Positions 4,006 to 26,089 of a stretch of 64,000 nt of DNA are shown here, in pieces (position 1 is the first letter of the stretch; each line of letters opens with the position of its first letter). Where the stretch lies: positions 4,477 through 68,476 of the forward strand of contig DASYRA010000026.1 of assembly GCA_036004845.1 (NCBI GenBank), read 5' to 3'. Below the pieces are notes generated by a model. The model had not been told where the DNA came from, made no database searches, and was given only the letters and a program-made list of their open reading frames with translations. Source of the DNA: Candidatus Limnocylindria bacterium (GTDB lineage: Bacteria > Chloroflexota > Limnocylindria > QHBO01). The translations under genes were made by a program, and so were the position numbers.

Positions 4006-4007
4006 GC

Positions 4008-5099
4008 TCAGGCCACCTCGAGGTCCGCGCGACCCTCGAGCGCCCGCAGCCCGGTGATGAGCACCTTGCGGCGCCGATCGTCGTCGGTGATCGCCAGCGT
4101 GTCGCGTGCGAACTGGCCGCGAACGGTGGCCTCCGCGTGGATGGCCTCGAGGTCGTACGAGGGGAGGAGCGCGGCGGCTCGGACGACGAAGCCGTCGAGG
4201 TGATCCCCCAGCTGGACGAGCGCCCGTGGGTCGACCGGCAGGTCGGCCGGCACCTCGCCGCTCAGCGTCACGCGCACCGAGCCGTTGAGCGGGGCGATGG
4301 CCATCGCGATCCGCTGGCGGACGTCGTCGAGGTGGTGGCACCCGTCGAGGTTGACCGCGAGGTCGTGCACCTGGCTCACCGCGACCGAGCGACGGTCACG
4401 CGTCACGGTGCCGTCGTCCGCGACGGTGGCAAGCACAGCACCACGGCCCTCCGACTCTCCGAATTCGAGCGGATCGGGGTTGCCGGGATACGTGTACCGC
4501 TCGCGGTCTCGCGCCACGTGATAGTGGCCGAGGAAGGCGTGGGCGATGCCCGCGGCCTCCAGCTCGGCGGCGTCAAACGGGGAGTGCGGCTCCTTCCCGG
4601 ACTCCTGGAACGGCAGGGCGCTGCGCTCCGAGGCATGGGCCAGGGCCAGGTGCACGCCACCGCGATCGGTTCGGAAGCCGGCGAAGAAGGACCCGGTGCC
4701 GGCCGGTGCGCGATGCGCCGCTCCCCACAGGATGAGGCCATCGGTGAGCTCGACCGGGGTCAGCTGCTCGTCGGTAAAGAGGTGGACGTTGGGGCTCCAC
4801 TCGACCAGCGCGTACGGACTGCGTGGCGAGTACCAGTCGTGGTTGCCCGGGGCGAGGTAGACCGGCAGATCGGTCCGGGCGAAGCTCTCGCGCAGGAAGG
4901 TGACGGTGTCAGGCGTGAAGCGATCGTGCTCGAAGAGGTCGCCGGCGCACAGCAGCGCATCGACTCGCTCCTCCTCTGCCAGCATCAGGATGCGGGTCAG
5001 CGTCTCGCGGCGGTTCCTGCGACGCAGGCGCGCGGTCTCGGGGCGCGCCCAGGCGAACGGCGCGTCGAGGTGGAGGTCGGCGAAATGCAGGAGCCGCAT
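4008..5099 (-). CDS. SbcD/YhaO-like metallophosphoesterase (DNA repair exonuclease subunit)
   Basis: MRLLHFADLHLDAPF, GDLFEH and GNHDW metallophosphatase motifs. Start taken at ATG 5099 (track start 5129 adds 10 residues). Immediately upstream of the SbcC-like ATPase. Confidence 0.85.
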   Translation of the reverse strand: MRLLHFADLHLDAPFAWARPETARLRRRNRRETLTRILMLAEEERVDALLCAGDLFEHDRFTPDTVTFLRESFARTDLPVYLAPGNHDWYSPRSPYALVEWSPNVHLFTDEQLTPVELTDGLILWGAAHRAPAGTGSFFAGFRTDRGGVHLALAHASERSALPFQESGKEPHSPFDAAELEAAGIAHAFLGHYHVARDRERYTYPGNPDPLEFGESEGRGAVLATVADDGTVTRDRRSVAVSQVHDLAVNLDGCHHLDDVRQRIAMAIAPLNGSVRVTLSGEVPADLPVDPRALVQLGDHLDGFVVRAAALLPSYDLEAIHAEATVRGQFARDTLAITDDDRRRKVLITGLRALEGRADLEVA

Positions 5100-5107
5100 G
5101 ATCGGCA

Positions 5108-5113
5108 AGCCTA
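5108..5113 (-). promoter_or_regulatory. candidate -10 element (TAGGCT) 8 nt upstream of the SbcD-like ATG
   Basis: Minus strand reads ggtgGCTAGGCTtgccgatcATG. The geometry implies a leaderless or very short-leader mRNA. Confidence 0.35.
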
Positions 5114-5180
5114 GCCACCTTCGCGACACCTAGGCCGTCGCGTTCGACGTGGCGAGCCCCGGATTGGCGACCCCCGGACG

Positions 5181-12420: not shown

Positions 12421-13427
12421 TGCGCCACCACGACAATCGGGACGTAGTAGCCGCCCAGCCTGCCCCAATCGAACCAGTGGAGGCCGTATGCCTGCAGGTC
12501 GAAGGCCTCCGTGTAGCTTCCCGGTGCCGGTGATGCACGCAGCTCGAAGGTGAAGCGGCCGACTCCATCGGGCGGAATGGAGCTGGTCCCATCCAAGAAC
12601 TTCGCTAGCCAGCTCAGCGGCCACGAGGAGCTCTTGAAGAGCGAGGCGTGCGCCGGCGGGTTCCACGTGCCGAGCGCTGTCCGCCCCACGTTTCCGCTGC
12701 TGCGCCAGGTGCGGCCGCCGGTGTTGCGAAACTCGACCCAGTGCCCGATCGTCCACCCTTGCGGAATCCGCTCAGTGCCGGCGTTGCTCTCGCGCACGTA
12801 CGCGGCATCAAAGGGGACGCGCCCCGGCCACGTCGTCCAGCGACGTTCCGCCAGGGGGTCCACCGGCTTGTAGGTCTTTGCGGTGGAGCTCCAGGCCAGC
12901 ATCTCGAAGTGCAGGTGGGCGCCGTAGCAGAGGCCGCTGCATCCCGACCGCCCGATCCGCTGACCGGCGAGCACGGTCGCCCCCACGCCAACCAGGATGC
13001 CGCCATCCGCCGAGCTGGCAAGGTGGTAGTAGAGCGTCTGCCGGCCGTCGGCATGCTGGAGCTTCACGAAGTTCCCGAACGAGCCGAACTGTGTCGTGCC
13101 GTACCCGCCTTCGACATCCACCACCGTCCCGTCCTTGGCGGCGGCGACCTCGCTGCGCAGGCTCATCGGGTAGTCGGTCCCGGTGTGCTGGTCGTAGACC
13201 CGGCCGTAGTGCGCCACGCCGTCGTTCCACACCTGGCCGGTCCAGTCAAGCTGGCGATTCAGCGTGCGATCGCGATCAACCCCATAGCTCATCGTCACGG
13301 TCGGGTTGTAGAAGGGCAGGGTGTAGTCGTCGACTCCCAGCACGGTGCCGCAGCTGATTGCGATGGCGGCCAGCTGAAGACAGGCGGCCGTGGCCACTCT
13401 GCATCGCCTGTGGCTCATGACCCGCAC
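12417..13427 (-). CDS. M23 family metallopeptidase with C-terminal Ig/NBR1-like domain
   Basis: HTGTDY and HLHFE zinc motifs of peptidase M23, with an N-terminal signal-like segment. Confidence 0.85.
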   Translation of the reverse strand: MRVMSHRRCRVATAACLQLAAIAISCGTVLGVDDYTLPFYNPTVTMSYGVDRDRTLNRQLDWTGQVWNDGVAHYGRVYDQHTGTDYPMSLRSEVAAAKDGTVVDVEGGYGTTQFGSFGNFVKLQHADGRQTLYYHLASSADGGILVGVGATVLAGQRIGRSGCSGLCYGAHLHFEMLAWSSTAKTYKPVDPLAERRWTTWPGRVPFDAAYVRESNAGTERIPQGWTIGHWVEFRNTGGRTWRSSGNVGRTALGTWNPPAHASLFKSSSWPLSWLAKFLDGTSSIPPDGVGRFTFELRASPAPGSYTEAFDLQAYGLHWFDWGRLGGYYVPIVVVAQ

Positions 13428-14419
13428 CCCGCCGAGCCCGCGAACCCGGCCAGCTCATCGATGACGGCCAGCACCGATCCGTCAGGGGTCAGCGCAATGT
13501 GCTGGTCCCCGCGTCGAAGGAGCAGCGACGATCCGTCTGGAGCGAAGCATGGCCCGGAACCGATCCCGACGCTGTGCGGGGTTGAGGCCGCGGCATCGAG
13601 CACGAAGATGCCGTGGTCGCCGTACTCGTAGGCGATGCGGCCGTCGCCCGCCACGGCAACGTTCACGGCACCCGGGTCGAGGTGGGCCAGCACCCGCGCG
13701 GCACCCGAGGTGAGCCGCTCGACCCGGGCCCCGCTCGGATCGTGGACGACGATGGCGAGGTCGCCGTCGTCGAGTGGGAAGGCGGCGTAGACGAGGTCCT
13801 CCTCCGAGAGCGCGGCCGCGACCCCGTTCGTCGGATCGAACTCAACGAGGCGCGACTGATACGGCGCCTGGACGGATGGGACCGCCAGCAGGATCAGGGA
13901 ACCGTCGGCGGCCACGATCGGCGAGCCGACAAACGGACCGTCGTCCAGGAGCTCTGCACGGCCCGACCCGGCATCGACTCGCCAGAGGGCGCCGCGGCCG
14001 TCGGTGACGGCCAGCCATGACGCGTCCGTGGCAAACGCCGCGGCCAACAGGCCGGGAAGCTGCACCCGCAGCTGGGCGCCATCGGCGCCGGCCAGCGTGA
14101 GCGAACCGGCGAGCTCGCCGACTCGATCTGCGAGGGCCACCTCGGCGCCGTCCGGTGAAACCGCCAGCAGGCTCTGGCCGGCGGCTGGTTGCTCCACCTC
14201 GACCAGGGTTGAGCCACCCACGGCGTGTTGGAGCAGCAAGATGGTCGCCCCCGACCGCTCGGCATCTGCAGCGCTCAGGCGGGTGACCCCCGGCACCTGC
14301 CCGGCGGACACCACCCCCGCAGCCAGGGCGGCGAGGACGATGGGAATGGCGGCGAAGGCGGCGATGCGAGGATCGCCGCGCGGCTGGCGGCGCGCGATGA
14401 CGCCCTGGGACCAGGACAT
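13415..14419 (-). CDS. membrane-anchored beta-propeller repeat protein (TolB/PD40-like), hypothetical
   Basis: N-terminal TM segment (IAAFAAIPIVLAALAAGVV) followed by repeated SPDG/APDG/AADG-type blade motifs. 13-nt overlap with the M23 gene. Confidence 0.55.
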   Translation of the reverse strand: MSWSQGVIARRQPRGDPRIAAFAAIPIVLAALAAGVVSAGQVPGVTRLSAADAERSGATILLLQHAVGGSTLVEVEQPAAGQSLLAVSPDGAEVALADRVGELAGSLTLAGADGAQLRVQLPGLLAAAFATDASWLAVTDGRGALWRVDAGSGRAELLDDGPFVGSPIVAADGSLILLAVPSVQAPYQSRLVEFDPTNGVAAALSEEDLVYAAFPLDDGDLAIVVHDPSGARVERLTSGAARVLAHLDPGAVNVAVAGDGRIAYEYGDHGIFVLDAAASTPHSVGIGSGPCFAPDGSSLLLRRGDQHIALTPDGSVLAVIDELAGFAGSAGCGS

Positions 14420-14421
14420 GG

Positions 14422-14498
14422 AGACCTCCGTAGCGTTGAGAACGACCGCTGAAACAAACGCTTCGGTGGCGACAGACCTCCATTCGTGGGAGAACGAC
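14422..14498. repeat. duplicated 25-nt module AGACCTCC-N8-GAGAACGAC (period 52 nt) in the leader of the propeller/M23 operon
   Basis: AGACCTCC at 14422 and 14474; GAGAACGAC at 14438 and 14490, with identical internal spacing. On the minus strand the proximal copy supplies the GGAGGTCT Shine-Dalgarno of the 14419 start. Confidence 0.6.
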
Positions 14499-14557
14499 GA
14501 TGACGAGCCTAGGAAGCGGTCCTTACCGCAGACTTATGGGGCAATGAACCGCGCCAG

Positions 14558-15319
14558 ATGCCCCCGTCGCTGATGCTTCCCGCCTGGCTGGCGCTGGGTG
14601 GGTTCCTGCTCCTGGCAGGTGGGCTGCTCCTCATGCGTCGCTCCGGGGCGCGCCCGACGATGGGCAGGCGGCTGGCCGGAGCCCGCCAGCTGCGCGTTGG
14701 AGAGCTGCTCGATCTCGCTCCAGGCGATCTGCTGCCCCATCGACCCGTGCGCGTGGTCGGTCGCATTCGCTGTGGCGAACCGATCGTCACCCCGCAGGAC
14801 GACGGGCTCGTCGCTCTCCATCGGGACGTGGAGGTGGAAACCTCGCATGGCGAATGGAGAAGCATCGAGCGCCTGCGAGAGACCCGCTCCTTCGAGCTGT
14901 GGGACCACGACGGGTCCCTGGAGGTCGATCCCGCGCAGGCGGCCGAGCCGCTCGTCGTGCTGCCGCACGTCTGGTCGGGCTCGGTGACGGAGCTTGACGA
15001 GTCCTACGCGCCTGCGCTGGCGCGACTCACCGCTGAGCAGGGGCCCGCGATGCAGGCCCGGGCGATCACCCGCATGGTCAGCGTGGTCGATCGGCTGCTG
15101 CTGCTGGCGACGATCAGGCGCAAGGCAGACGGTCGGATTGCCCTGCTTCCGCCTCCTGGCGGATTCATCGTCAGCACGCTCGACCTCGACGACGCGATGC
15201 GGCTCCTGGGCGGCTCGCGCCCGCGATTGATGCTGGCCGCCACGGCAGCCCTTGTCCTGTCGGTTGCCGTGCTGGTCGCGGCGGCCGTGCTGCTGGTTTT
15301 CGGGCTCAGCGCCGCCTGA
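14558..15319 (+). CDS. membrane protein with GIDE-like domain (N- and C-terminal TM helices)
   Basis: TM at both ends. The central VRVVGRIRCGEPIVTPQDDGLVALHRDVEV ... FELWDHDGSLEVDP pattern resembles bacterial GIDE-domain proteins (from memory). Confidence 0.5.
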   Translation: MPPSLMLPAWLALGGFLLLAGGLLLMRRSGARPTMGRRLAGARQLRVGELLDLAPGDLLPHRPVRVVGRIRCGEPIVTPQDDGLVALHRDVEVETSHGEWRSIERLRETRSFELWDHDGSLEVDPAQAAEPLVVLPHVWSGSVTELDESYAPALARLTAEQGPAMQARAITRMVSVVDRLLLLATIRRKADGRIALLPPPGGFIVSTLDLDDAMRLLGGSRPRLMLAATAALVLSVAVLVAAAVLLVFGLSAA

Positions 15320-15393
15320 TCGAGGGTCGGCGCCCAGCGAGTACTGGTGCCCCGGGGTACGAACGGGGTATCGAGGCGGCGCCTACCCAGTTC

Positions 15394-15399
15394 TACCAT
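15394..15399 (+). promoter_or_regulatory. candidate -10 element (TACCAT) for the GGDEF operon
   Basis: gttcTACCATccgc lies 58 nt upstream of GTG 15458. Preceded by the tandem CGGGGTA repeats at 15353-15370. Confidence 0.35.
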
Positions 15400-15457
15400 C
15401 CGCTCCACGGGACTTACCAGAAGTTCCAATGCCCAAGAGGGGCAGGAGCGGACAGCA

Positions 15458-18400
15458 GTGGCGCAGACAGCTCGCGACCATGCGGAGGGCCGGGAGGCCC
15501 TGGTCAGCGTTGCCCAGGCGGCTGCCCTCCTGGGTGTCCACCCCAACACCCTTCGCGCCTGGACGGACGCCGGCAGGCTGCCGGCGTATCGGATCAACGC
15601 TCGCGGCGACCGACGCTATCGCAGCGGCGACGTGCAGCGGCTCCTCGCCGAAGGCACTGGCTCTCCTGCGCCCCCGGCACCCGAACGCCGGATCGACGCC
15701 GAGCTCGCCGTCCTGGGCCGGCTCACCGCGGGGCCTGGAGGCTCGGCGAACGCCACCGCCGTGTGTCGAACCGCCGTAGAGGCTCTCCGTGCCCACCTGC
15801 GCATCGCACGGGTCGCGGCCTACCTCGCGCGCGAGGGCGGCGACGGCTCCCTCCAGCTCGAGACGCATGCGGGATACGAGACCGCGCCGCCGGAGACGAT
15901 CGATCCCGCCCGCAGCTTCGACCACGGTGAGGATGGGAGCCTGGTCGCGGACATCGTCGTCGGCCCGCTGCGTCGCCAGGTCGCCCTGCGCGCGGGTGGT
16001 GGTGGCGAGATCGTGGGAGCACTCGTGCTCGAGGACGATCCGGGCGGGCCGCTGGTGGGCGTCGCGCTCGGCTTTCTGCGAACGGTGGCCACGGCGGTCG
16101 CGGCCAACGTCTTCACCGCGCGGGCGCTGGCTCGCGCCAAGCGCGAGGTGACGCGGTCTCGAGTCCTGCGCCACGTCGCGCAGGAGCTCGCCGGTCAGCT
16201 CGACCTGAGCACGGTGCTCGACGACATCGTCGAGCGAACTCGAACCCTGTTCGACGCCGACAAGGCCGGCCTGTGGCTGATCGAGGAGGGTGAGCGCCCG
16301 TTCCACGTCGCGGCCGTGCGCGGCATCGGCGAGCGCTTCCTGGCCAAGACGCGGGAGCTGACCTGGGACAGCACCGCGGTCGGCGTCCAGGCCGCCAAGG
16401 AGCGCCGCAGCATCGTGGTTCGCAACGCCGACACGCGAGCCGGCGTCGGGGAGATGCAGCAGCACTACCGCGATGAGGGGATCAAGACCTCGTGCCTCGT
16501 GCCGCTGGTGAACCACGACCAGGCGCTGGGCCTCATCGGCCTGTTTCACACACGCGATCGGGAGTGGCCGGACGACGAGCTCGCCCTGGCCCAGGGGTTT
16601 GCCAACCAGGCCGCCGTCGCGATCAGCAACGCTCGCCTCTACCGCTCGGTGGCGGACCAGGCCGCTCGCATCCGGTCGATCCAGGATCTGTCGTCCAGGC
16701 TCAACCGACTGACCGACGTCCAGGCGATCGCCGACGCCATCGTGGCCGAGGCGAGCACGCTGGCGGCCTATCACGACATCCGGGTCTACGTGGTGAACTG
16801 GGACGAGGGCCTGTGCGAGCCGGTCGCGTACACCGACCGGCTGCTGGGCAAGGGCGACTTCCACGAGCGCCTGCGCGTCGCCATCGGCGAGGGGTCATTC
16901 ACCGGCTGGGTCGCGGAGCACGGCGAGCCGCTGCTCATCAACGACGCGCTGAACGACACGCGCGGGCACACCATCGAGGGGACCGACGACATCGACGAGT
17001 CGATGCTGGTGGTGCCGATGCTGTTCGAGGGGCGTGCCGTCGGCGTGGTCGCCCTATCGAAGCTGGGCCGCGACCAGTTCAGCAACGACGACCTGCAGAC
17101 GATGACGATCTTCGCCGGCTACGCCGCCCAGGCGATCGCGAATGCATCGGCCTATGAGCGGATGGAGCTGCAATCGACGGAGCTTGCTCGCCAGCTCCAG
17201 TCCCAGCGTCGCCTGCTAGAGATCAACGAACGACTGCAGTCGACCCTCGACCAGCAACACGTGCTGGAGACGATCGCCGACGGCCTGCGCTCGGTGGTCC
17301 ATTACGACAACCTGTCGATCTATCGCGCCGACCACCAGAATCAGGTCATGGTGCCGGTCCTCACCAGGGAGCGGCACGCCGAGCAGGTGATGGCCTATCT
17401 CGCGCCGTTCAGCCGGGGCCTGATGGGGTGGGCCGTCGAACATGCGGAGTCGGTCCTGGCCAACGACGCGCTGAACGACCCGCGGGCGGTGCAGATCCCC
17501 GGCACGCCGGCGGATCCCGAGTCGCTGGCGGTGGTGCCCCTCGTCGGCGGAGGCGAGGTGATCGGCTGCATGAACATCTCCCGCGTCGGCGGGGCCGAGA
17601 ACTACTTCAGCGAGAACGACTTCGAGCTGATCAAGCTCTTCGCTGGCCAGGCATCGATCGCCCTGCGCAACGCCGACACCCACCATGCCGTCAGTCAGCG
17701 AGCCGACACCGATGCCCTCACCGGGCTCGGCAACCATGGATCGTTCCAGCGAACGCTGGGCGAGCTGGCGAACGATTTCGCCGCCGAGGGCGGTAGCGGG
17801 CGGCGCAAGGGGGCGCGAGCCAAGCAGCGCCCCATCTCGCTGCTGATGATGGACCTCGACTCGTTCAAGGGCTACAACGACCGGCTCGGCCATCCAGCCG
17901 GCGACGCGCTGCTGCACGCGGTCGGGACCGGGATCTACGGCGCCGCGCGAACCGACGACCGGGTCTATCGATACGGTGGCGACGAGTTCGCCCTGGTCCT
18001 GCCTGCGGTTGACGGGGATGCTGCTGCCGCGATCGGTGAGCGGGTGCGCGAGGCCGTCTCGCGGCTCACGTCGAACGATGCAACGCCGGTCACGATCTCC
18101 ATCGGCGTCGCAACGCTGCCAGGGGACGCCAACGACAAGAACGGGTTGATCGCCGCCGCGGACATTGCCCTCTACTACGGGAAGCAGTCGGGAGGTGATC
18201 GGGTGATGCGTGCCTCTCACGTCCCCGGCGAGATGCGCGACCTGCGCGACACGCTCGATCAGTCGGCCCGCACGGCGCTGCTCGTCCCGCAGGGCGCCGA
18301 CGGGGAGGGGGCCCGGGGTGCCGTGCGTCGCGGGGCGGTCACACCCATCGTCTCGAATGCGGACGAGGGGGTGATCGAGGCGCTGCTGGCGCTGGCTCGC

Positions 18401-18871
18401 TCCATGGATGTGCGCGATCCCGCCGGGCGTGGGCACGCCGACCGGGTCGCGATCCTGGCCGCCAGGATCGCCAAGCAGCTCGACTGCCATGCCCAGCAGA
18501 CCGCCGACATCGAGCTCGCCGCGCGATTGCACGGGCTCGACCTGGTGGCTGCCACCGAGCTCGAGGCAATCAACTCTCTCCGCCCCGCGGCCGTCCTCGT
18601 CCGCCAGCACCGCGCCGCCATGGACCCGCAGGAAGCCCAGATCGGCTCGCAGATCGTCTCGGTCGCCGATGCCTACGACTCGCTCCTCAGCGGCTCGGAC
18701 GGAAAGCGCCGCGGGCGCGCGGCGGTCCTCACCGCGCTGCGAGCGGCGGTGGGGACCCGCTACCGCGCCGAGGTGGTGGAGGCGCTGGCCACCGTCGTCT
18801 CCGCGCGGACCGTCCGGGGCCAACATCGACGGCGGAGCGACCGGCAGGCTGACGAACGGGGAGCTGCCTGA
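15458..18871 (+). CDS. multidomain signalling protein: excisionase/MerR-type HTH, 4 GAF-like domains, GGDEF diguanylate cyclase, degenerate HD-GYP-like domain
   Basis: HTH: LVSVAQAAALLGVHPNTLRAWTDAGRLPAYRINARGDRRYR. Four GAF-like blocks follow, then RYGGDEFALV with the RTDD I-site 5 residues upstream. The C-terminal GHADRVAILAARIAKQL ... LHGLDLV segment is HD-like with the Asp lost. Start placed at GTG 15458 (GGAG 8 nt upstream); the track start is 15347. Confidence 0.85.
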   Translation: MAQTARDHAEGREALVSVAQAAALLGVHPNTLRAWTDAGRLPAYRINARGDRRYRSGDVQRLLAEGTGSPAPPAPERRIDAELAVLGRLTAGPGGSANATAVCRTAVEALRAHLRIARVAAYLAREGGDGSLQLETHAGYETAPPETIDPARSFDHGEDGSLVADIVVGPLRRQVALRAGGGGEIVGALVLEDDPGGPLVGVALGFLRTVATAVAANVFTARALARAKREVTRSRVLRHVAQELAGQLDLSTVLDDIVERTRTLFDADKAGLWLIEEGERPFHVAAVRGIGERFLAKTRELTWDSTAVGVQAAKERRSIVVRNADTRAGVGEMQQHYRDEGIKTSCLVPLVNHDQALGLIGLFHTRDREWPDDELALAQGFANQAAVAISNARLYRSVADQAARIRSIQDLSSRLNRLTDVQAIADAIVAEASTLAAYHDIRVYVVNWDEGLCEPVAYTDRLLGKGDFHERLRVAIGEGSFTGWVAEHGEPLLINDALNDTRGHTIEGTDDIDESMLVVPMLFEGRAVGVVALSKLGRDQFSNDDLQTMTIFAGYAAQAIANASAYERMELQSTELARQLQSQRRLLEINERLQSTLDQQHVLETIADGLRSVVHYDNLSIYRADHQNQVMVPVLTRERHAEQVMAYLAPFSRGLMGWAVEHAESVLANDALNDPRAVQIPGTPADPESLAVVPLVGGGEVIGCMNISRVGGAENYFSENDFELIKLFAGQASIALRNADTHHAVSQRADTDALTGLGNHGSFQRTLGELANDFAAEGGSGRRKGARAKQRPISLLMMDLDSFKGYNDRLGHPAGDALLHAVGTGIYGAARTDDRVYRYGGDEFALVLPAVDGDAAAAIGERVREAVSRLTSNDATPVTISIGVATLPGDANDKNGLIAAADIALYYGKQSGGDRVMRASHVPGEMRDLRDTLDQSARTALLVPQGADGEGARGAVRRGAVTPIVSNADEGVIEALLALARSMDVRDPAGRGHADRVAILAARIAKQLDCHAQQTADIELAARLHGLDLVAATELEAINSLRPAAVLVRQHRAAMDPQEAQIGSQIVSVADAYDSLLSGSDGKRRGRAAVLTALRAAVGTRYRAEVVEALATVVSARTVRGQHRRRSDRQADERGAA

Positions 18872-18899: not shown

Positions 18900-19637
18900 A
18901 TGGCGCCTCCCATGCCGACGACCCGACCGGACGCTGCCCGCCGGCGGCGCGCCATCCAGACGCGGCACGTCACCACGCTGTCTGCCCTCCTCCTGATCGT
19001 CGCCGGTTGCACGTTCGCGTCGCCAACCCCGACGCCGAGCCCGAGCCCCGTCCCAACCCCCGTCGCCACGCCGACGCCGGAGCCGACACCAGAGCCGACC
19101 CCGATCTTCACGAACGTCCCTGATCCGGCGCTGGTGGCCCTGATCCCGACCGAGGCCGCCGGGCAGGTGGTCCAGATCCCGGCGATCACGGAGTTCTCGA
19201 TCACGCCCGGCGACATCGGCGAGGTCTATGGCGAGATCGGCGCGCGCTTTCGCTCGCTCCAGATCGCGTACATCTCGCGCCCTCGCCTCTCGCTCTACGC
19301 CATGCGCATGAATCCGCCGACCGTGACCACGGCGGACCTGAAGCCGTACCTGGCCGCGGCGGCGGAGTACGTCGGGATCGCGGGCCTCCACCCCGAAGCG
19401 TGGAAACTGCAGACGGTCGCCGCCCACGTCGTCTGGGTGCGTCCCGAGGACAACGCGACGCTGCCCGGGACGCGGGTCTACAGCTGGGTGGCCGACGACC
19501 TCGTCTTCCTGATGATCGGCGTCGACGAGGCGCAGAACCTGGCCATGCTGGCCGGCCTCCCCGGCGAGGCACCCCCGACCCCATCCCCGGTGCCCTCGAC
19601 CATTGAAATCCCGAGCGTCGGGCCCTCAGCCTCATGA
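18900..19637 (+). CDS. hypothetical lipoprotein with Pro/Thr-rich linker
   Basis: ATG 18900, in frame within track ORF 18408..19637. LSALLLIVAGCTF lipobox, then a PTPTPSPSPVPTPVATPTPEPTPEPTP linker, then a globular domain of unknown family. Confidence 0.6.
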   Translation: MAPPMPTTRPDAARRRRAIQTRHVTTLSALLLIVAGCTFASPTPTPSPSPVPTPVATPTPEPTPEPTPIFTNVPDPALVALIPTEAAGQVVQIPAITEFSITPGDIGEVYGEIGARFRSLQIAYISRPRLSLYAMRMNPPTVTTADLKPYLAAAAEYVGIAGLHPEAWKLQTVAAHVVWVRPEDNATLPGTRVYSWVADDLVFLMIGVDEAQNLAMLAGLPGEAPPTPSPVPSTIEIPSVGPSAS

Positions 19638-20659
19638 CCGATTGGGGCGATTGGGGCGACGACGCGCGCGAGGATCGCCTCTCCCGCAAGCGAGACCGCC
19701 TGGCCCGCCTCCTCTCGGTCGCCTCGATCCTGTACGCCCGCGGCAGCGGCGAGTCCGGCGTGCCGGTCGCCGAGATCGCCGGGCTGACGGGGATGACGAC
19801 CCGCACCGTCTACCGCGACATCCGCGCGCTGGAGGAGGAGCTGGCGATGCCGATCTTCCAGGCGGGAAAGGGCCGGTACGGGATCGAGAAGAAGTACTTC
19901 CTCCCGCCGCTGCATCTCTCCCTGCCCGAGGCGGTCGTCCTCTTCCTGGCGTCGCGCCTGATCGCCCGCTGGTCGGATGCCTACGACCAGGCGGTGGTCA
20001 GCGCCTTCACCAAGCTCGCCGACCTGCTTCCCCAACCCATCGCGCGGCACGTGGCCGCCACCATGCTGACCGTCGGCCAGGCTGAGCCGAACGACCAGTT
20101 CGTGCGGAACTTCGCCCACGTCGCCCAGGCATGGGCCGATGGGCGGGTCGTGGAGTTCGAGTACGAGCCGGGCGAGGGTGAGCGCCGGAAGGCGCGGGTG
20201 CAGCCGTACTTCCTCGAGCCCGATGCAGCTGGGCGCAGCGTCTACCTGATCGGCTTCGACGAGACCGTCAAGGCGATGCGGACGTACAAGGTGGAGCGGA
20301 TCCGGAGTTCGACGCTGACGGCGGACCGCTACCAGATCCCCGACGACTTCGACCCGGACCGCTGGCTCGCCCACTCGTGGGGCATCTGGTCCTCGGACAC
20401 CACGGCCACCGCCGATGTGCGGCTGCGGTTCGAGGCGTCCGTCGCGCATCGCGTGCGCGAGGCGGTCTGGCACCGCTCGCAGCGTGTCACCGAGCTGCCA
20501 GACGGCCGGGTCGAGCTGACGGTGACCGTCGCCGGCATCGTCGAGATCCGGCCCTGGATCCTCTCCTGGGGCGATGGGGTCGAGGTGCTCGAGCCGCCGG
20601 AGCTGCGGGAGGCGGTGGCCCGCGCCGTGCGTGCGGCCGCGGCACGCTACGAAGCGTGA
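19634..20659 (+). CDS. WYL-domain transcriptional regulator (HTH-WYL-WCX; YafY/PafBC-like)
   Basis: N-terminal HTH (VPVAEIAGLTGMTTRTVYRDIRALEE), a central WYL-type segment (RVQPYFLEPDAAGRSVYLIGFDE ... RTYKVERI), and C-terminal VEVLEPPELR. ATGA overlap with the lipoprotein gene. Confidence 0.85.
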   Translation: MTDWGDWGDDAREDRLSRKRDRLARLLSVASILYARGSGESGVPVAEIAGLTGMTTRTVYRDIRALEEELAMPIFQAGKGRYGIEKKYFLPPLHLSLPEAVVLFLASRLIARWSDAYDQAVVSAFTKLADLLPQPIARHVAATMLTVGQAEPNDQFVRNFAHVAQAWADGRVVEFEYEPGEGERRKARVQPYFLEPDAAGRSVYLIGFDETVKAMRTYKVERIRSSTLTADRYQIPDDFDPDRWLAHSWGIWSSDTTATADVRLRFEASVAHRVREAVWHRSQRVTELPDGRVELTVTVAGIVEIRPWILSWGDGVEVLEPPELREAVARAVRAAAARYEA

Positions 20660-21291
20660 CCTCGCCTCACGTCGAAGCCGAGCTGAAGTACACCACCCTC
20701 GACGAGCGCCCGCTGCAGGAGCTGGAGCGCGCGGAGCGCCTCGGCCCGGCGCATCTCGGCGTCCCCCGGACCGTGGCCGAGCTGGACCGATACCTGGACA
20801 CGACGGGCCTGCGCCTGGCCGCGCTCCGCTGGGCGTGCCGCCTGCGGTCGCGCGAGGGACGGACGGTCGTCTCGCTGAAGGGGCCTGCCGAGCACGCGGC
20901 TGGTGATCGCGTCCATCGGCGGCCCGAGCTTGAGGGACCGGTGGGCAGGGGCCTCGACCCGATCGGCTGGCCACCGTCAGCCGCCCGAGATCGGCTGCTC
21001 GCCATGGCGGGGGGCGCGCCGCTCACCGAGAGATTCCGGCTGGAGCAGGAGCGGATCGAGCGATCCGTGTCGATGGGCGGCCTCCGGGTGGGGACCCTGT
21101 CGCTCGACCGAGTGCGGGTACTGCGCGGCGAGACCGACCTCGGCGGGCTGCTGGTGGTGGAGCTCGAGTTCGACCCGGCCAACCCCGTCGATCATCGGCC
21201 CCTGGCGGCTGCCCTGGGTCGGCTGCCCGGCCTCGCCCCCGATCCGTTGAGCAAGTTCGAGCGCGCGGAGGGGATGCTGGCCGGCGCCTGA
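20656..21291 (+). CDS. CYTH-domain protein (triphosphate tunnel metalloenzyme family)
   Basis: GTG 20656 overlaps the WYL stop (GTGA). The N-terminal VEAELKY is the ExExK signature, followed by alternating charged beta-strand patterns. 211 aa, no CHAD domain. Confidence 0.7.
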   Translation: MTSPHVEAELKYTTLDERPLQELERAERLGPAHLGVPRTVAELDRYLDTTGLRLAALRWACRLRSREGRTVVSLKGPAEHAAGDRVHRRPELEGPVGRGLDPIGWPPSAARDRLLAMAGGAPLTERFRLEQERIERSVSMGGLRVGTLSLDRVRVLRGETDLGGLLVVELEFDPANPVDHRPLAAALGRLPGLAPDPLSKFERAEGMLAGA

Positions 21292-21298
21292 TTCGCGC

Positions 21299-21988
21299 TC
21301 AGTCGCCGAGCGGGAGACGAAGGATCAGCGCCAGCGTCGGGCGTGGGCGTGGCTCGGGCGCCAGCAGCGAGGCGCGCAGCCACGCATCGCCGGCCGGTCC
21401 GGCCCGATGGCGCGCGCTCAGCTGACGCGCCGACAGGCCATCGATCCCCAGCGCCGCCAGGGCTTCCGCCACCAGCGTGCCGTCACCGACGTAGGCGCGT
21501 CCAACGGTGACGCGGTCCCCGGGGGTCAGAATCGCATCGAGCCAGCGGCGCCGAACCCCGAACGACCTCGCGACGACGGGCTGGCCGCCGCTCCACAGCA
21601 GGTCGCCGGCGACGTAGGCCGGGCGGCCGGGGCGCGCCCGTCCCTCGAGCCGGGCGCGTAGCAGCTCCGGATCGGGGCGTCCGGCGTCATCGAGGACGAG
21701 CAGGGTCCCATCGAGCACCACGCCGTCCTCGGCAAGCTGCTCGGGCATCGGCATCAGCTCGGGGAAGGCCGCGAGCGCATCGGCCAGGCCAGCGACCTGG
21801 AGCCGGACGGTGCCGTGCTCGCAGAACGCGATCGCACGGGCGCCGGGCCACCACGGCTCGAAGAGGTAGCCCGGATCGTCAAACGGCGCATCGACGATGG
21901 TCGCCTGCATCGGGGAGATGCGGGATGGCAGGCGTCGCGGCGAGTCGCTGCTGGGCGGAACCGGGAGCGGAAGCTGCTCTGCCGCCAC
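21299..21988 (-). CDS. ATP-dependent DNA-ligase-like nucleotidyltransferase domain protein, catalytic motifs degenerate (probable pseudo-enzyme)
   Basis: PMQATIV...YLFEPWWPGARAIAF...VVLDGTLLVLD...GDLLWSGG...IDGLSARQL...AWLRASL aligns with LigD-type motifs I, III, IIIa, IV and V, but the motif I Lys/Asp, motif III Glu and motif IV/V Lys residues are all replaced. No OB domain. Good GC3 coding signal. 8 nt downstream of Ku. Confidence 0.65.
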   Translation of the reverse strand: MAAEQLPLPVPPSSDSPRRLPSRISPMQATIVDAPFDDPGYLFEPWWPGARAIAFCEHGTVRLQVAGLADALAAFPELMPMPEQLAEDGVVLDGTLLVLDDAGRPDPELLRARLEGRARPGRPAYVAGDLLWSGGQPVVARSFGVRRRWLDAILTPGDRVTVGRAYVGDGTLVAEALAALGIDGLSARQLSARHRAGPAGDAWLRASLLAPEPRPRPTLALILRLPLGD

Positions 21989-21996
21989 GCGAACGG

Positions 21997-22953
21997 CTAG
22001 GCGCTCTTGCGTTGGCGCGGCCGCGCCGCCTCATCGGCGCGCGTGGCCTTCGCTGGCTTCGCGCTCTTCGCGGCCTTCGCGCCGACCTTCGTACCAGCCT
22101 TGACGGTCGCCGGCTTCGCGGCGGCCTTCGCCGCAGGAGCTGCCTTGCCCTTCGCCGATGCACCCAGGCGCCGCGCTTCCCGGGCGCCGGCCACGCTCGC
22201 CTCGAGGGCCGCCATGAGGTCACCGATGCGGGTCGGCTCGACCTTCTGCGCCGGCACCGGAGCCTCGCCGGCGACCTTGGCCTCGATGACGGCCATCAGG
22301 GCCTGGCGGTAGTCGTCGTGGTACTCCTCGGGCTTGAACACCCCGGACATCGAGGCGACCAGCTGCTCGGCCATCTTGCGCTCGGCTGGCTTGACCTCGA
22401 TCTCCTCGTCGGGGATGTCCAGCTCCTCGAGCGGACGGACCTCATCGGGCCAGTGCAGGGTGGTCAGCAGCATCGTCTTCGTGTACGGGTTCAGAGCGGC
22501 GAGCTGCTCACGGTCCTTGAGCACGATCTTGCAGATGGCGGTCTTGCCCTGCTCGGCCAGGACCTGGCGCAGGAGCTCGAAGGCCTTGCGCCCGATCGGG
22601 TCGGGCTCGAGGTAGTAGGCCTGCTTGACGAACTCGACGCCCTGCCCCTCGCGATGCGCGTCGACGAACATCTCGATCTCGATCGCCCGCACCGTCTTCA
22701 GCGGGACCGCCTCGAAGTCCTTGTCGTCGAGGACGACGTAGCGCCCCTTTGCCCACTCGTAGCCGCGCACCGTCTCGGATCGCGGGATGACCTCATCATC
22801 CTCCGGGCAGTAGATCTTCATCTGGATCCGGCTCAGATCCTTCTCGTGGAGGAGGTTGAAGCCGATAGAGCTGCTCTCAGTTGCCAGGTACAGCTTGACC
22901 GGGATCGTCACCAGGCCGAACTGGATCGCGCCGCGCCACATTGAACGTGCCAT
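21997..22953 (-). CDS. ku: Ku protein (non-homologous end joining) with Lys/Ala-rich C-terminal tail
   Basis: MARSMWRGAIQFGLVTIPVKLY is a typical bacterial Ku N-terminus. C-terminal tail: AKGKAAPAAKAAAKPATVKAGTKVGAKAAKSAKPAK. Start trimmed to ATG 22953. Confidence 0.9.
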   Translation of the reverse strand: MARSMWRGAIQFGLVTIPVKLYLATESSSIGFNLLHEKDLSRIQMKIYCPEDDEVIPRSETVRGYEWAKGRYVVLDDKDFEAVPLKTVRAIEIEMFVDAHREGQGVEFVKQAYYLEPDPIGRKAFELLRQVLAEQGKTAICKIVLKDREQLAALNPYTKTMLLTTLHWPDEVRPLEELDIPDEEIEVKPAERKMAEQLVASMSGVFKPEEYHDDYRQALMAVIEAKVAGEAPVPAQKVEPTRIGDLMAALEASVAGAREARRLGASAKGKAAPAAKAAAKPATVKAGTKVGAKAAKSAKPAKATRADEAARPRQRKSA

Positions 22954-22960
22954 GCGCAAG

Positions 22961-22966
22961 ATCGTA
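22961..22966 (-). promoter_or_regulatory. candidate -10 element (TACGAT) 7 nt upstream of the Ku ATG (leaderless geometry)
   Basis: Minus strand reads ccgcTGTACGATcttgcgcATG. Confidence 0.4.
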
Positions 22967-23076
22967 CAGCGGACGGGCAACGAGGCTCAATCCTCGACCG
23001 GATGGTGCAGCCGCGGCAGGACCATCACGCCATTGGCCGCGCATCGGGCGACCACGACACTCGGCGGGTGATGCCC

Positions 23077-23568
23077 TCAGAGGACCTGCGTCCCCTCCGG
23101 CCCCGAGATCGCCACCAGCGCGCTGACCTCCTCGCCGTCCCGCTGTGCGAGCCGGTAGCGGTGCTCGATCCGAGCGGAGCGCGACAGCATGGCGTTGACC
23201 GGACAATAGATCGTCGCCGACAGCTCAACCGCGCGGCGCACCGTCTCGGGCTCGACATCACCCGCCACCTGGTGCTCGACGACGATGCCGGTGTAGACCT
23301 GCGGGTGCTCGTCGCGCTTCTCGCCGGTCACCGCAATGCGATAGCTGCTCGCCGGCTGCCGCTTCTTGCGCAGGATGCTGGCGACGTCCATCGAGGTGCA
23401 GGCGGCCAGGGCGGCCAGGAGCGATTCGGTCGGGCTCGGGCCGCCGCGATGGCCGTCGGCATCGGCGAGGTCGAACGTCATTCCGAAGCCGGTCCCGGTC
23501 AGCACGTCGACGCGTGCTCCCTGCTGCGGATCGTCCACGGTGGCGACCGCGGTGAGCGTGGTGGGCAT
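23077..23568 (-). CDS. OsmC family peroxiredoxin/redox protein
   Basis: 163 aa with the two conserved Cys contexts LAACTSMD and TIYCPV of OsmC/Ohr proteins. Confidence 0.9.
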   Translation of the reverse strand: MPTTLTAVATVDDPQQGARVDVLTGTGFGMTFDLADADGHRGGPSPTESLLAALAACTSMDVASILRKKRQPASSYRIAVTGEKRDEHPQVYTGIVVEHQVAGDVEPETVRRAVELSATIYCPVNAMLSRSARIEHRYRLAQRDGEEVSALVAISGPEGTQVL

Positions 23569-23574
23569 GTCATG

Positions 23575-23583
23575 AGCCTAGCA
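23575..23583 (-). promoter_or_regulatory. candidate extended -10 (TGCTAGGCT) 6 nt upstream of the OsmC ATG (leaderless geometry)
   Basis: Minus strand reads gacTGCTAGGCTcatgacATG. Only 29 nt separate the divergent OsmC and NERD starts. Confidence 0.45.
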
Positions 23584-23597
23584 GTCGGAAGTCACCG

Positions 23598-24359
23598 ATG
23601 CGCCTGATCCATCCCGTCATGATTCGCGGCATGCGGACCCACGCGCTCACCGTCGCGCTTGGCATGCTGATCGTCGGCTTCACCGCCCTGGTGCTCCTGG
23701 CGCTCCTGCCCTCGAACCGCGTAGTGGCCCTTGCCCTGATGGGCGTCTCCGCCGCGCTCGGCATTGGCGTGGGCACCGCAATGGTCTGGCGGGAGGCCCG
23801 CGCGGCCCGGCGACGGCGCAACGAGACCGGCGACGACATCGCGCGCCTCCTGGCCCCCACCCTCGACGACTCCTACACCCTGGTGCTGGCCCCGCGCCTG
23901 CCCGGCGTCCCCGGCGACCTGGCGGCGCTGCTCGTCGGCCCGGCCGGGGTGCGGGCGCTGATCGCGCGCCGCTGGCCCGGGCGGTATCGGGTGCGAGGGA
24001 AGGGGTGGGAGCTCGACACCCGTTCGCGGGCGGGCTGGATCCCCACCCTCACCAATCCCTCGTTCGACGCCGATGCCGTGGCTGATGCCGTCGGACGATG
24101 GTCGCGCGCCGCGGTCGACGACCCGAGCGTCGCCATCACGCCGGCCATCGCCTTTCCGCGGCCGTACTCCACCGTCGTGCTGGAGGAGCCGGCCGGCGAG
24201 ATCGTGACAATCGACAACGCCCCGTGGTGGGCGCAGAGCATTGGGCGGGTGCAGCGCATCGACGCGCAGCGCGCCACCCGGTTTGTGGAGGCGGTCCTCA
24301 GCGCCTCCGAGGCTGAGGCGACGGGAGCCGCCCGCAGCGCCGCCCCCCGGGTCGTCTAG
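23598..24359 (+). CDS. membrane-anchored NERD-domain-like protein
   Basis: Two N-terminal TM helices, then a segment with NERD-like layout (GDDIARLL...DSYTLVLAPRLPG..GDLAALLVGPAGVRALIARRW). The start could be a downstream ATG (23619 or 23631). Confidence 0.5.
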   Translation: MRLIHPVMIRGMRTHALTVALGMLIVGFTALVLLALLPSNRVVALALMGVSAALGIGVGTAMVWREARAARRRRNETGDDIARLLAPTLDDSYTLVLAPRLPGVPGDLAALLVGPAGVRALIARRWPGRYRVRGKGWELDTRSRAGWIPTLTNPSFDADAVADAVGRWSRAAVDDPSVAITPAIAFPRPYSTVVLEEPAGEIVTIDNAPWWAQSIGRVQRIDAQRATRFVEAVLSASEAEATGAARSAAPRVV

Positions 24360-26089
24360 CCCTCGACGGCCTCGTCGCCGACTTCGCCGGTGGCGGCGAT
24401 CCGTTCCGTCTCGCCCCTGGCGCCGCGCGCCAGCAGGATCCGACCACTGGCCTGGGCGGCGAACAGCTTCTCGACGGTCGCCAGCTCGTCGATGTCGGCG
24501 GGGGTCTTGTCGTCGCGAATTCGCACGATGCGCGGGAACCGCATCGCGAACCCGCTCTTGTGGCGCGCGCTGCGCATGATCCGGTCGAAGGCGATCTCAA
24601 CGACCACCTCCGGCACCACGGTCCGATAACGCCCGAAGTCCCGCAGCGTGATCTCCTTGAAGTGCTCGGTCATGGTCGCGATCTCGGCATCGGTCAGGCC
24701 GGTGTAGGCCTTGCCGATGGTGAGCAGCGAATCGCCGTCCGCCGCACGCACCGCGAAGGTGTAGTCGGAGAGGACGCCGCGACGCTTCCCGTGCCCCCAC
24801 TCGACGCCGACCACGACGCAGTCGAGGGTGGCGAGCGCCTTCTTGAGCTTCAGCCAGCCGAGCCCGCGCCGGCCGGGCTGATACACCGATTCGGGGTCCT
24901 TGACCATCAGCCCCTCGTTGCGTCGCTCGCGGGCATCGTCGAAATGCGTCTCCACCTCGTCAGCTGAGCGCGCCGTGGCGAGGTGCGAGTAGAGGAAGCG
25001 CTCGCCGCTCCGCTCCGGCAGTGCAAGCCCCTCGAGCGCGGCGCGGCGCTCGCGGAGCGGCGTTTCGAGCATGTCCCGCCCGTCGAGGTGCAGCAGGTCG
25101 AAGGCGACGAGCACGACCGGCACCTGCTCGAGCAGCTCGGGGCTCGGATCCACGCGGCCGAGCCTCGTCTGCAGGCTGGCGAAGTCGAGCACCGCCCCGG
25201 CCCGATACGGGACCAGCTCCCCGTCAATGACCAGGCGATGCGTGAACGCCGCGGCCGCCGACACGACCTCCGGGAACGCCCCGCCGATCTCGTTGAGGTC
25301 TCGCGAGAAGAGCCTCGGGCCCGCGTTGCCATCCAGGTGCAGCTGCGCGCGGATGCCGTCGTACTTATCCTCGATCCAGGCCTCGTCCCCTACTCGACGC
25401 ATCACCTCGTCGGCATCGACGACCGGCGTGGCGAGCATGAAACGGACCGGGCGTCCCAGGTGGAGTGCCGCATCGGCGAGCCGGTCGTCCCGGGCCAGGA
25501 TCGCCGCCTCGCCGGGCTCGCCGACCAGCATCAGCGCCCGTCGCACCGCCTCGATCGGACGCGCGAACGCCGCGGCGATGGCGTCCTCCAGCAACCCCTC
25601 GCGGAGCCCGATCCGCAGCTCGCGCGCGGCGATCCTGCCGACGAAGCGCGCCTCGGGAGCCGTGGCGCGCCGGAAGAGATCGGTCATCAGCCCGACCCGC
25701 GCGGCCGTGCTGCCCGCCGCGCTCATGGCGCGAAAGGCCGCGTCGACGTCCGTCAGCCTGAGGTGCGCGCCGCTCGGCTCCCGGCCGTCGAGCAGGTCGG
25801 CCGCGGCGTCCCCGAAGTCGGAGTGGCGCAGGTATGCCTCGTGCAGCGCCTGGTCGTCTGCGCCCGTGGCCGCGGCCAGCGCCTGCGTCTGCTGCACCCA
25901 GCCGAGCCCCAGCTTGTCGGCGCTGCCGGGCAGCGGCCTCCCCGCAAAGAACGTCGCGGCGATCGGCACGTCGCCCGGCGGCAGGTTGCGGAGGTAGGAC
26001 GCCAGCAGGTCGCGCTTGCGCAGCTTGGAGGTGGTGGCCGCCACCGCCTCCGCGGTCTTCGCGAACGCCGCGAACAGGCTCGAGCGCAT
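24356..26089 (-). CDS. lig: ATP-dependent DNA ligase with N-terminal DNA-binding domain (LigB/Cdc9 type)
   Basis: 577 aa. Motif I EDKYDGIRAQL, motif IV NEGLMVK, motif V GWLKLKK, plus the C-terminal OB domain. Confidence 0.9.
   Translation of the reverse strand: MRSSLFAAFAKTAEAVAATTSKLRKRDLLASYLRNLPPGDVPIAATFFAGRPLPGSADKLGLGWVQQTQALAAATGADDQALHEAYLRHSDFGDAAADLLDGREPSGAHLRLTDVDAAFRAMSAAGSTAARVGLMTDLFRRATAPEARFVGRIAARELRIGLREGLLEDAIAAAFARPIEAVRRALMLVGEPGEAAILARDDRLADAALHLGRPVRFMLATPVVDADEVMRRVGDEAWIEDKYDGIRAQLHLDGNAGPRLFSRDLNEIGGAFPEVVSAAAAFTHRLVIDGELVPYRAGAVLDFASLQTRLGRVDPSPELLEQVPVVLVAFDLLHLDGRDMLETPLRERRAALEGLALPERSGERFLYSHLATARSADEVETHFDDARERRNEGLMVKDPESVYQPGRRGLGWLKLKKALATLDCVVVGVEWGHGKRRGVLSDYTFAVRAADGDSLLTIGKAYTGLTDAEIATMTEHFKEITLRDFGRYRTVVPEVVVEIAFDRIMRSARHKSGFAMRFPRIVRIRDDKTPADIDELATVEKLFAAQASGRILLARGARGETERIAATGEVGDEAVEG

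Follow-up and report, generated by a model that had tools for sequence, protein, structure and literature searches.

A 64,000-nucleotide stretch of the genome of a Candidatus Limnocylindria bacterium (contig DASYRA010000026.1, positions 4,477 to 68,476; hereafter the window) was found to encode, directly downstream of the end-joining gene ku, a protein of 229 amino acids (aa) that is related to the ligase domain of LigD and in which the catalytic residues are replaced. This catalytically dead paralogue of the nucleotidyltransferase (NTase) subdomain of the LigD ligase domain, hereafter named psiLig, is a pseudoenzyme derived from the ligase module of LigD and a third, non-enzymatic member of the Ku operon. 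The usual description of non-homologous end joining (NHEJ) in bacteria is that of a minimal system of two proteins, Ku and LigD. The results suggest that end joining in these soil bacteria uses a third, non-enzymatic subunit, and from sequence and gene order we consider it probable that psiLig acts as a Ku-associated end-joining subunit that is non-catalytic and keeps LigD-like docking surfaces.

psiLig is a homologue of the LigD ligase domain

A ligase fold had been proposed for psiLig in an earlier note made from the letters of the window alone, together with profile searches and an AlphaFold model as ways of checking it; profile, sequence and structure searches all agreed with this proposal. 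The best NCBIfam matches were without exception NHEJ-type ATP ligases, with PRK09632 at E 3.8e-24 (residues 18-206 on profile positions 472-657 of 781) and TIGR02779 (NHEJ_ligase_lig) at E 2.2e-17 (residues 27-205 on profile positions 2-182 of 302). All scores lay far under the curated cut-offs of the families (85 versus 989 for PRK09632, 63.3 versus 227.75 for TIGR02779), and Pfam PF01068 was likewise sub-threshold, with 23.4 bits versus a gathering score of 26.2. Among solved structures, the best sequence matches were those of the Mycobacterium tuberculosis LigD ligase domain (6nhx, 6nhz and 1vs0; E 1.5e-17 to 2.8e-17). AlphaFold2, given a family alignment of 150 sequences, produced a model with a mean predicted local distance difference test (pLDDT) score of 87.5 and a predicted template modelling (pTM) score of 0.81 that was confident over residues ~21-210. 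In a Foldseek search, this model matched archaeal ATP ligases and M. tuberculosis LigD in their NTase domain, with E 1e-13 to 1e-11, TMq 0.66-0.72 and a root-mean-square deviation of 2.4-2.8 Å over ~190-205 columns. psiLig is a true homologue of the NTase subdomain of the LigD ligase. Like the ligase domains of LigD and LigC (TIGR02779, PRK09632; 1vs0, 6nhx, 6nhz), it has the NTase fold, the PMxAT entry, the linker motif that lies upstream and OB strand 1. It differs from them in the replacement of all six catalytic motif positions, in having no lysine, and in the absence of the OB domain, of motif VI and of the PE and POL modules.

The catalytic motifs are replaced and lysine is absent

The substitutions were read from the HMMER alignment to M. 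tuberculosis LigD, from a hidden Markov model (HMM) alignment of 150 cluster representatives and from an alignment with an active LigD encoded in a related operon; the three alignments agreed. The degenerate motifs of psiLig, all on the minus strand, are the following:

21836..21862, minus strand: motif I, FExKWDGxR (FEgKWDGyR) changed to FEPWWPGAR; the adenylation lysine is W46 and the aspartate P48
21689..21721, minus strand: motif III, reading VVLDGTLLVLD; LDGE changed to LDGT, the glutamate being T95
21596..21616, minus strand: motif IIIa, reading YVAGDLL; AFDLL changed to AGDLL, the adenine-stacking aromatic residue being G128
21425..21442, minus strand: motif IV, EGviAK (EGxxAK) changed to DGLSAR; the lysine is R188
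21368..21382, minus strand: motif V, WxKxK changed to WLRAS; the two lysines are R205 and S207

Position 128 is occupied by serine in most relatives (ASD). Each of the replacements that the earlier note had reported in motifs I, III, IV and V was recovered residue by residue, and so was the absence of an OB domain, although the tail of the protein aligns with the first OB strand of LigD. The chain ends 22 residues past motif V and has no match to PF04679; psiLig is therefore devoid of OB domain and motif VI.

Covalent lysyl-AMP chemistry is essential for all ATP- and NAD-dependent ligases. psiLig contains no lysine residue at all, so that this chemistry is unavailable to it, whatever the detail of the alignment. 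As judged from its sequence, psiLig cannot ligate by the known mechanism. The lack of lysine extends to 68 of 86 orthologues, and no alignment column has more than 10% lysine. The residues that took the place of the catalytic ones are themselves conserved: F43, E44, P45, W47, P48 and G49 are invariant among relatives and W46 and T95 are present in at least 90% of them, the string FEPWWPG is invariant or nearly so both in 121 close relatives and in the family alignment, and the replaced forms of motifs III, IIIa, IV and V are kept in the same 121 proteins. Many positions outside these motifs are nearly invariant as well. The conserved loss of catalytic residues proposed in the earlier note thus holds in three subfamilies, down to 41-48% identity.

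Position and start of the gene

The psiLig open reading frame (ORF) occupies positions 21299..21988 of the minus strand, from a GTG start to a TGA stop at 21299-21301. Its GC content at third codon positions is 0.85, similar to that of its neighbours; the GC content of the window is 70%. Immediately upstream are:

21997..22980, minus strand: ku, encoding a canonical bacterial Ku (TIGR02772, E 1.5e-81; Pfam PF02735, E 9.8e-42)
21989..21996, minus strand: spacer between ku and psiLig, exactly 8 nucleotides (nt), TAG-CCGTTCGC-GTG, following the ku stop codon TAG at 21997-21999

The start of ku is ambiguous between a TTG at 22980 and an ATG at 22953 (MARSMW...); the latter is used by most orthologues and may be the true one. 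At its C-terminus Ku has a conserved arm, DLMAALEASV (...IGDLMAALEASV...), followed by a Lys/Ala-rich extension. The distance between both genes, which the earlier note had given correctly, is of a length typical of co-transcribed pairs, possibly with translational coupling. A scan of positions 21100-23700, weak at a GC content of 70%, detected no promoter-like or terminator-like site, so that no promoter or terminator proper to psiLig was found between it and ku.

Most automated gene calls begin psiLig at an internal ATG (residue 27), giving a protein of 203 aa. Among the 120 best matches, 73 start there (201-210 aa, mostly 203) and lose 26 conserved residues (21908-21988, minus strand). When 74 ORFs were compared, the first 26 codons turned out to be conserved as protein with synonymous variation: Q5, L6, L8, L20 and P21 are invariant or nearly so, and the conserved positions each use three to five synonymous codons. 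Met27, in turn, corresponds to the methionine in PMLAT, the conserved entry to the ligase domain of LigD. This conservation at the protein level, combined with the assignment of Met27, indicates that the 229-aa reading is correct; the coordinates of the earlier note are therefore better than those of the 203-aa public calls.

Distribution of psiLig and purifying selection

Searches of 5.8 billion clustered proteins yielded 548 relatives of psiLig, of which the best 120 are 71-94% identical to it and have ~203 or 229 aa; where a source names the organism, it is given as Chloroflexota or Candidatus Limnocylindria. Depth was added to the family by searching 50%-identity representatives exhaustively, which gave ~25 representatives at 41-68% identity that carry the replaced motifs of psiLig; active LigD/LigC ligases come next in the ranking. 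A second subfamily comprises 988 members, 41-47% identical to the psiLig of the window. Relatives were also present in 224 species representatives of GTDB, nearly all of them labelled Chloroflexota or Candidatus Limnocylindria. A few loci bear the labels Methylomirabilota, Zixiibacteriota, Dormiibacterota, Steroidobacteraceae or Pleomorphomonadaceae; their sequences are 56-91% identical to those from Limnocylindria, and these loci may be binning errors.

The integrity of the ORF was examined in 85 loci out of the 224 GTDB matches. It is intact at ~225-240 aa across these loci, and odd lengths were artefacts of start-codon choice or frame extension. Ratios of nonsynonymous to synonymous substitution (dN/dS) were calculated by the Nei-Gojobori method for the window versus its 15 closest relatives (dN <0.13). 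For psiLig they ranged from 0.045 to 0.155. In the same genome pairs the ranges were 0.04-0.27 for Ku, 0.07-0.25 for a LigB-type ligase encoded nearby, 0.03-0.15 for a WYL regulator and 0.22-0.50 for OsmC. In distant pairs dS saturates near 0.6-1.0, and their dN/dS values are therefore overestimates. psiLig is under purifying selection and is not a decaying pseudogene; decay was ruled out by the intact ORFs and the low dN/dS. This agrees with the earlier note, which had held that psiLig was not a recent pseudogene and had suggested collecting orthologues: in these, the substitutions and the adjacency to ku are conserved and dN/dS is comparable to that of Ku and LigB. In this respect psiLig resembles other pseudoenzymes, such as pseudokinases (PMC10211241), which are likewise homologues of enzyme families kept by purifying selection after loss of the catalytic residues, and like them it is encoded beside an active paralogue in some genomes.

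psiLig is linked to ku in three subfamilies

All 81 loci of the window's type or of subfamily 2 that include at least 600 nt of DNA upstream of psiLig carry ku there as the direct neighbour, and the gap between the genes is usually 6-10 nt. Loci of the window's subfamily have the order LigB-type ligase ... OsmC - Ku - psiLig, and CYTH and WYL genes run convergently on the other strand. In subfamily 2, Ku - psiLig is flanked by GDSL lipase on the Ku side and by TetR on the psiLig side. The adjacency to ku is thus kept although the wider neighbourhood differs. LigD is encoded downstream of psiLig in none of 83 loci of these two types. An apparent Ku-psiLig fusion in one locus (L026), a 665-aa ORF, was a frame artefact, the Ku stop codon being 8 nt before the GTG of psiLig.

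A different arrangement was found in the third subfamily. The closest active relative of psiLig (P0146) is a full PE-LIG-POL LigD, from a Chloroflexota-type clade, some proteins of which bear the name Candidatus Limnocylindria. Two contigs, L092 (651 kb) and L093 (445 kb), have the order Ku - unannotated gene of 248 or 227 aa, respectively - LigD of 964 or 970 aa. The gene in the middle is psiLig: it encodes FEPWWPGIR, shares 46% identity with the psiLig of the window, ends in ...FLALLRRLPL and was matched by hmmsearch with E 6e-62 (L092) and 1e-67 (L093). The LigD beside it has an intact motif I, FEPKWDGYR. A metagenome scan extended this subfamily to ~50 loci, with ku directly upstream of psiLig in 36 of 37, the PE domain of LigD directly downstream in 30 of 32 and its POL domain in 17 of 19. 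In the sole locus where ku and psiLig are apart (L127:168-3842), ~2 kb of DNA is inserted.

The partnership with Ku put forward in the earlier note is therefore upheld as gene adjacency, in 81/81 and 36/37 loci, including loci with differing neighbourhoods. Since psiLig and an active LigD coexist in one operon, psiLig is a separate paralogue and an extra member of the operon rather than a wrecked LigD. Strong selection has kept it for a long time: in one lineage it sits between ku and ligD, in another it accompanies ku without ligD, and where LigD has ceased to be a neighbour, psiLig remains beside ku. The link to Ku is established for the FEPWWPG family only.

Both ends of psiLig are conserved peptides related to LigD

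The segments of lowest model confidence in psiLig (residues 1-20 and 211-229) are among its most conserved. They contain the following peptides:

21959..21979, minus strand: N-terminal peptide EQLPLPV (residues 4-10), pattern Q-L-x-L-[PS]-[VIL]
21302..21343, minus strand: C-terminal tail RPTLALILRLPLGD, a vestige of the first OB strand plus an LPL end

In the 74 ORFs, Q5, L6 and L8 are conserved in 74, 73 and 73 sequences, respectively. The pLDDT of the N-terminal peptide is below 65, and the model suggests that this segment is probably disordered. In the tail, R216, P217, L219, L221 and L225 are invariant and P226 is present in 71 of 74 sequences, again with synonymous codon variation; its pLDDT is 44-53 and it is predicted to be disordered in the monomer. 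Subfamilies 1 and 2 share the N-terminal pattern [EDQ]-Q-L-x-L-[PS]-[VIL], whereas subfamily 3 has [DE]-P-L-P-L-E-F; at the C-terminus, the pattern of the family is R-P-x-L-x-L-[IL]-x-[RK]-L-P-L. Conserved peptides of low pLDDT with synonymous variation are a pattern typical of linear motifs that bind partners.

Both ends have counterparts in LigD. The N-terminal peptide aligns with a motif in the linker between the PE and LIG domains, at the same spacing of ~20 residues before PMxAT. This motif, APLP[ST]LDPPGSR, is strongly conserved in a clade of LigD proteins (P0404-P0521; for example L093:4001-6913), and xEIDLSxA takes its place in more distant members of the clade. To our knowledge, no function has been assigned to it. 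The C-terminal peptide aligns with RPTQELVVGGY, the first OB-domain strand of the LigD encoded in the same operon in subfamily 3. The alignments indicate that psiLig carries an inherited version of the linker motif, and because both its ends align with LigD in this way, the protein reads as a slice of LigD, made up of linker motif, NTase subdomain and OB strand 1, from which the chemistry has been removed.

Proposed role of psiLig

We propose that psiLig would be co-expressed with ku from one operon and that its LigD-like surfaces, predicted to bind Ku, would dock on it, whereas its conserved, disordered ends might hold or position another factor. Sealing would be left to a true ligase, in subfamily 3 the intact LigD encoded directly downstream and in the window's lineage either the LigB-type ligase encoded at a distance of 2.4 kb or a LigD from an unlinked locus. 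In M. tuberculosis, the C-terminal arm of Ku contacts both LigD's polymerase domain and its ligase domain, and the LigD substitutions D522R, K579E and L580E change Ku binding and stimulation (bioRxiv 10.64898/2025.12.12.693941). The Ku of the window keeps its conserved C-terminal arm, which was counted in favour of docking on Ku. The net charge of psiLig, about -3 and thus slightly acidic, speaks weakly against a stand-alone binder of DNA ends. From sequence and gene order, we infer physical binding to Ku and a scaffolding rather than an inhibitory role.

Several observations weigh against this proposal. D522, K579 and L580 of M. tuberculosis LigD were mapped to E87, R148 and W149 of psiLig and were uninformative: these contact residues are unconserved in the Chloroflexota LigD of the same operon, and retention of a Ku interface can therefore not be read from the sequence. 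Three more distant lysine-less relatives with end motifs resembling those of psiLig, the ones whose loci were examined, do not lie beside ku; one (P0394) adjoins PPK2 and two others (P0163, P0142) have unrelated neighbours, so that a module of this fold plus tails can evidently work without a neighbouring ku. The sealing ligase of the window's genome is itself presumed, a LigD encoded elsewhere in that genome being a candidate. Furthermore, the data are equally compatible with psiLig acting as a decoy or an inhibitor and with its being a positive scaffold.

According to the last of these, psiLig would mimic the ligase module of LigD and occupy the LigD-docking arm of Ku, or the DNA ends, without sealing them, thereby restraining or timing end joining; for example, ligation of Ku-bound ends could be held back until they are fully processed or growth has ceased. 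We regard a brake of this kind as unlikely, yet deserving of serious consideration: the structural and genomic evidence for it is identical to that for a scaffold, the retained elements that flank the ligase core in LigD are consistent with competition for the same partners, psiLig coexists with an intact LigD in one operon, and a published model in which one LigD engages both Ku arms through its POL and LIG domains leaves room for competition (bioRxiv 10.64898/2025.12.12.693941). An inhibitor encoded 8 nt after ku and kept where the LigD of the operon is gone (0 of 83 loci) is nevertheless less parsimonious than a positive subunit. The N-terminal peptide raises another reading, namely that Q-L-x-L-P-[VIL] would bind the sliding clamp DnaN, and that psiLig would tether Ku or the ends to it or deliver a clamp-bound ligase or polymerase. 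The clamp-binding hexapeptide is Q-phi-x-L-x-L, phi standing for a hydrophobic residue, with Q-L-[SD]-L-F as another form, and QLSLPL of Hda, one of the clamp clients with such a hexapeptide, binds with a sub-micromolar dissociation constant. QLPLPV at residues 5-10 of psiLig fits the consensus in its conserved positions Q5, L6 and L8 and, as in Hda, is at the extreme N-terminus; other lysine-less LigD-like proteins of Chloroflexota start with MPQLSLF, MDDQLSLKL or QLALDL, and matches to the motif in the next-best-scoring active ligases are internal and scattered. The peptide of subfamily 3 ([DE]PLPLEF), however, has no glutamine, and the element apparently derives from the LigD linker motif PLP[ST]LD, from which it may have been inherited with another role; as short motifs often match by chance, we judge clamp binding to be improbable.

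The near-invariance of the replaced residues (FEPWWPG, SAR, WLR) indicates that the former active-site region is still under selection, as would be expected if the pocket lined by W46, W47, P48, T95, R188 and R205 bound a small molecule as a sensor or supported a catalysis other than lysyl-AMP chemistry. Such a cryptic function appears very improbable, given that there is no lysine for covalent nucleotidylation, that the acidic residues binding metal and ribose (motif I aspartate, motif III glutamate) and the adenine-stacking aromatic residue are gone, and that neither OB domain nor motif VI is available to complete a ligase active site; two tryptophans and a proline more simply fill and stabilise the pocket. 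A decaying remnant of LigD, kept by linkage to ku alone, would account for the loss of domains and catalytic residues and for the position of psiLig, which is that of LigD after ku in the canonical Ku - LigD(PE-LIG) - PrimPol operon lacking psiLig (L090). This is hardly credible in view of the intact ~225-240-aa ORFs in 85 loci with dN/dS (0.045-0.155) as low as for Ku and LigB, of new motifs nearly invariant in three subfamilies down to ~41% identity, and of the coexistence with an intact LigD in one operon.

A bolder version of the proposed scaffolding role, to which we hold tentatively as a possibility on which we would not yet bet, is that NHEJ in Limnocylindria and related Chloroflexota has three components, and that the lysine-free pseudoenzyme is a dedicated structural subunit whose terminal peptides connect the sealing ligase, and perhaps also the clamp, with the Ku dimer. 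The bridging subunit would then have arisen by duplication and inactivation of the ligase itself, as an independently evolved counterpart of XRCC4, XLF and PAXX, the non-enzymatic scaffolds of eukaryotic NHEJ that are partners of Ku and ligase IV. By analogy, the role proposed for psiLig, a non-catalytic subunit of the Ku machine with terminal peptides, would be alike; there is no homology, psiLig being a dead ligase domain and the eukaryotic proteins having a head plus a coiled coil.

Candidate sealing ligases

Within the annotated part of the window no LigD, PrimPol or PE domain was found. A further ligase gene is located upstream of ku and psiLig, at a distance of 2.4 kb:

24356..26089, minus strand: intact three-domain (DBD-NTase-OB) ATP-dependent DNA ligase of the LigB/Lig1 type (PF04675 + PF01068 + PF04679)

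Its motif I is EDKYDGIR. Of 87 loci of subfamilies 1 and 2, 62 show synteny of this ligase gene with Ku-psiLig. This enzyme may be the one that seals ends for the ku-psiLig cluster; for the window's lineage, it and an unlinked LigD are candidates. Full-length LigD was found in two Candidatus Limnocylindria metagenome-assembled genomes (L091:5001-7832 and L175:2508-5189) with no ku nearby, in a conserved locus of the order PNPOx - aminotransferase - HAD - LigD. The assemblies that contain these contigs are distinct from those of the psiLig loci, and the contigs are not syntenic with the window. In Limnocylindria, a lack of linkage between ligD and ku (the latter with psiLig) may be general.

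Novelty and significance

Full-text literature searches on lysine-less or inactive ligases associated with Ku or LigD, on DNA-ligase pseudoenzymes and on end joining in Limnocylindria retrieved no description of a protein like psiLig and no DNA-ligase example of such a pseudoenzyme, and targeted look-ups in two comparative NHEJ surveys and one metagenomic survey of repair enzymes found no psiLig-like protein. The claim of the earlier note that the protein is undescribed holds within this searchable literature. In their sources, relatives of psiLig are annotated as 'bifunctional non-homologous end joining protein LigD', 'ATP-dependent DNA ligase' or 'hypothetical protein'. Should psiLig have a structural or regulatory role as a subunit, it would count as the first accessory factor of bacterial NHEJ that is both dedicated and non-enzymatic, exemplify a pseudoenzyme among DNA ligases, and provide a handle on how the two C-terminal arms of Ku are used. 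It would also correct a systematic annotation error, the JGI name 'bifunctional NHEJ protein LigD' and the 26 residues dropped from the gene; given that name, surveys that count 'Ku + LigD' may score a ligase adjacent to Ku that does not exist.

Neighbouring genes and other observations

Two genes on the plus strand are convergent on the 3' end of psiLig:

19634-20659, plus strand: regulator of HTH-WYL-WCX domain structure, PafBC/DriD-like in architecture
20656-21291, plus strand: CYTH-domain protein, overlapping the WYL regulator gene

This WYL and CYTH pair is syntenic in most related loci and is given here as context; in many relatives, a gene for a Wzy_C/TPR membrane protein sits between the pair and psiLig. 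Membership of a defence system was considered and rejected, since PADLOC gave no match for psiLig, Ku, CYTH or their neighbours, except for the WYL regulator, which had generic WYL-domain matches and weak AbiEii ones.

LigD-like proteins without the motif I lysine were also encountered outside the FEPWWPG family: P0142 (L174:651-1634), P0163 (L086:6001-7158) and P0394 (L088:6001-6744), and further P0164, P0165, P0190, P0210 and P0215. Their motif I takes forms such as FEPLYDGQR, FEVRWDCIR, FEPRWGGRR and FEVLWDGxR. Three of them are labelled Chloroflexota or Dehalococcoidia in their sources (P0142, P0163 and clusters). Several keep the OB domain, and some begin with the clamp-motif-like MPQLSLF or MDDQLSLKL mentioned above. 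Lysine-less ligase homologues may thus be a wider phenomenon.

Elsewhere in the window, ~16 kb from the Ku cluster, the minus strand of positions 1513-5129 encodes an SbcC-like protein (SMC_N/AAA_23, 942-aa ORF) and an SbcD-like one (Metallophos, 373 aa), which by their domains would form a nuclease pair that processes DNA ends. A 1174-aa protein with a MerR-type helix-turn-helix, three GAF domains and a GGDEF domain is encoded at 15347-18871 on the plus strand, and its gene lies next to the WYL gene in two related loci (L001, L002). Conserved ORFs with strong GC bias at third codon positions and no significant Pfam match are present at 23598-24359 (plus strand) and 13415-15319. Among them is a 253-aa gene between OsmC and the LigB-type ligase, which is syntenic in the same two loci (L001, L002) and whose product has predicted membrane-like N-terminal segments.

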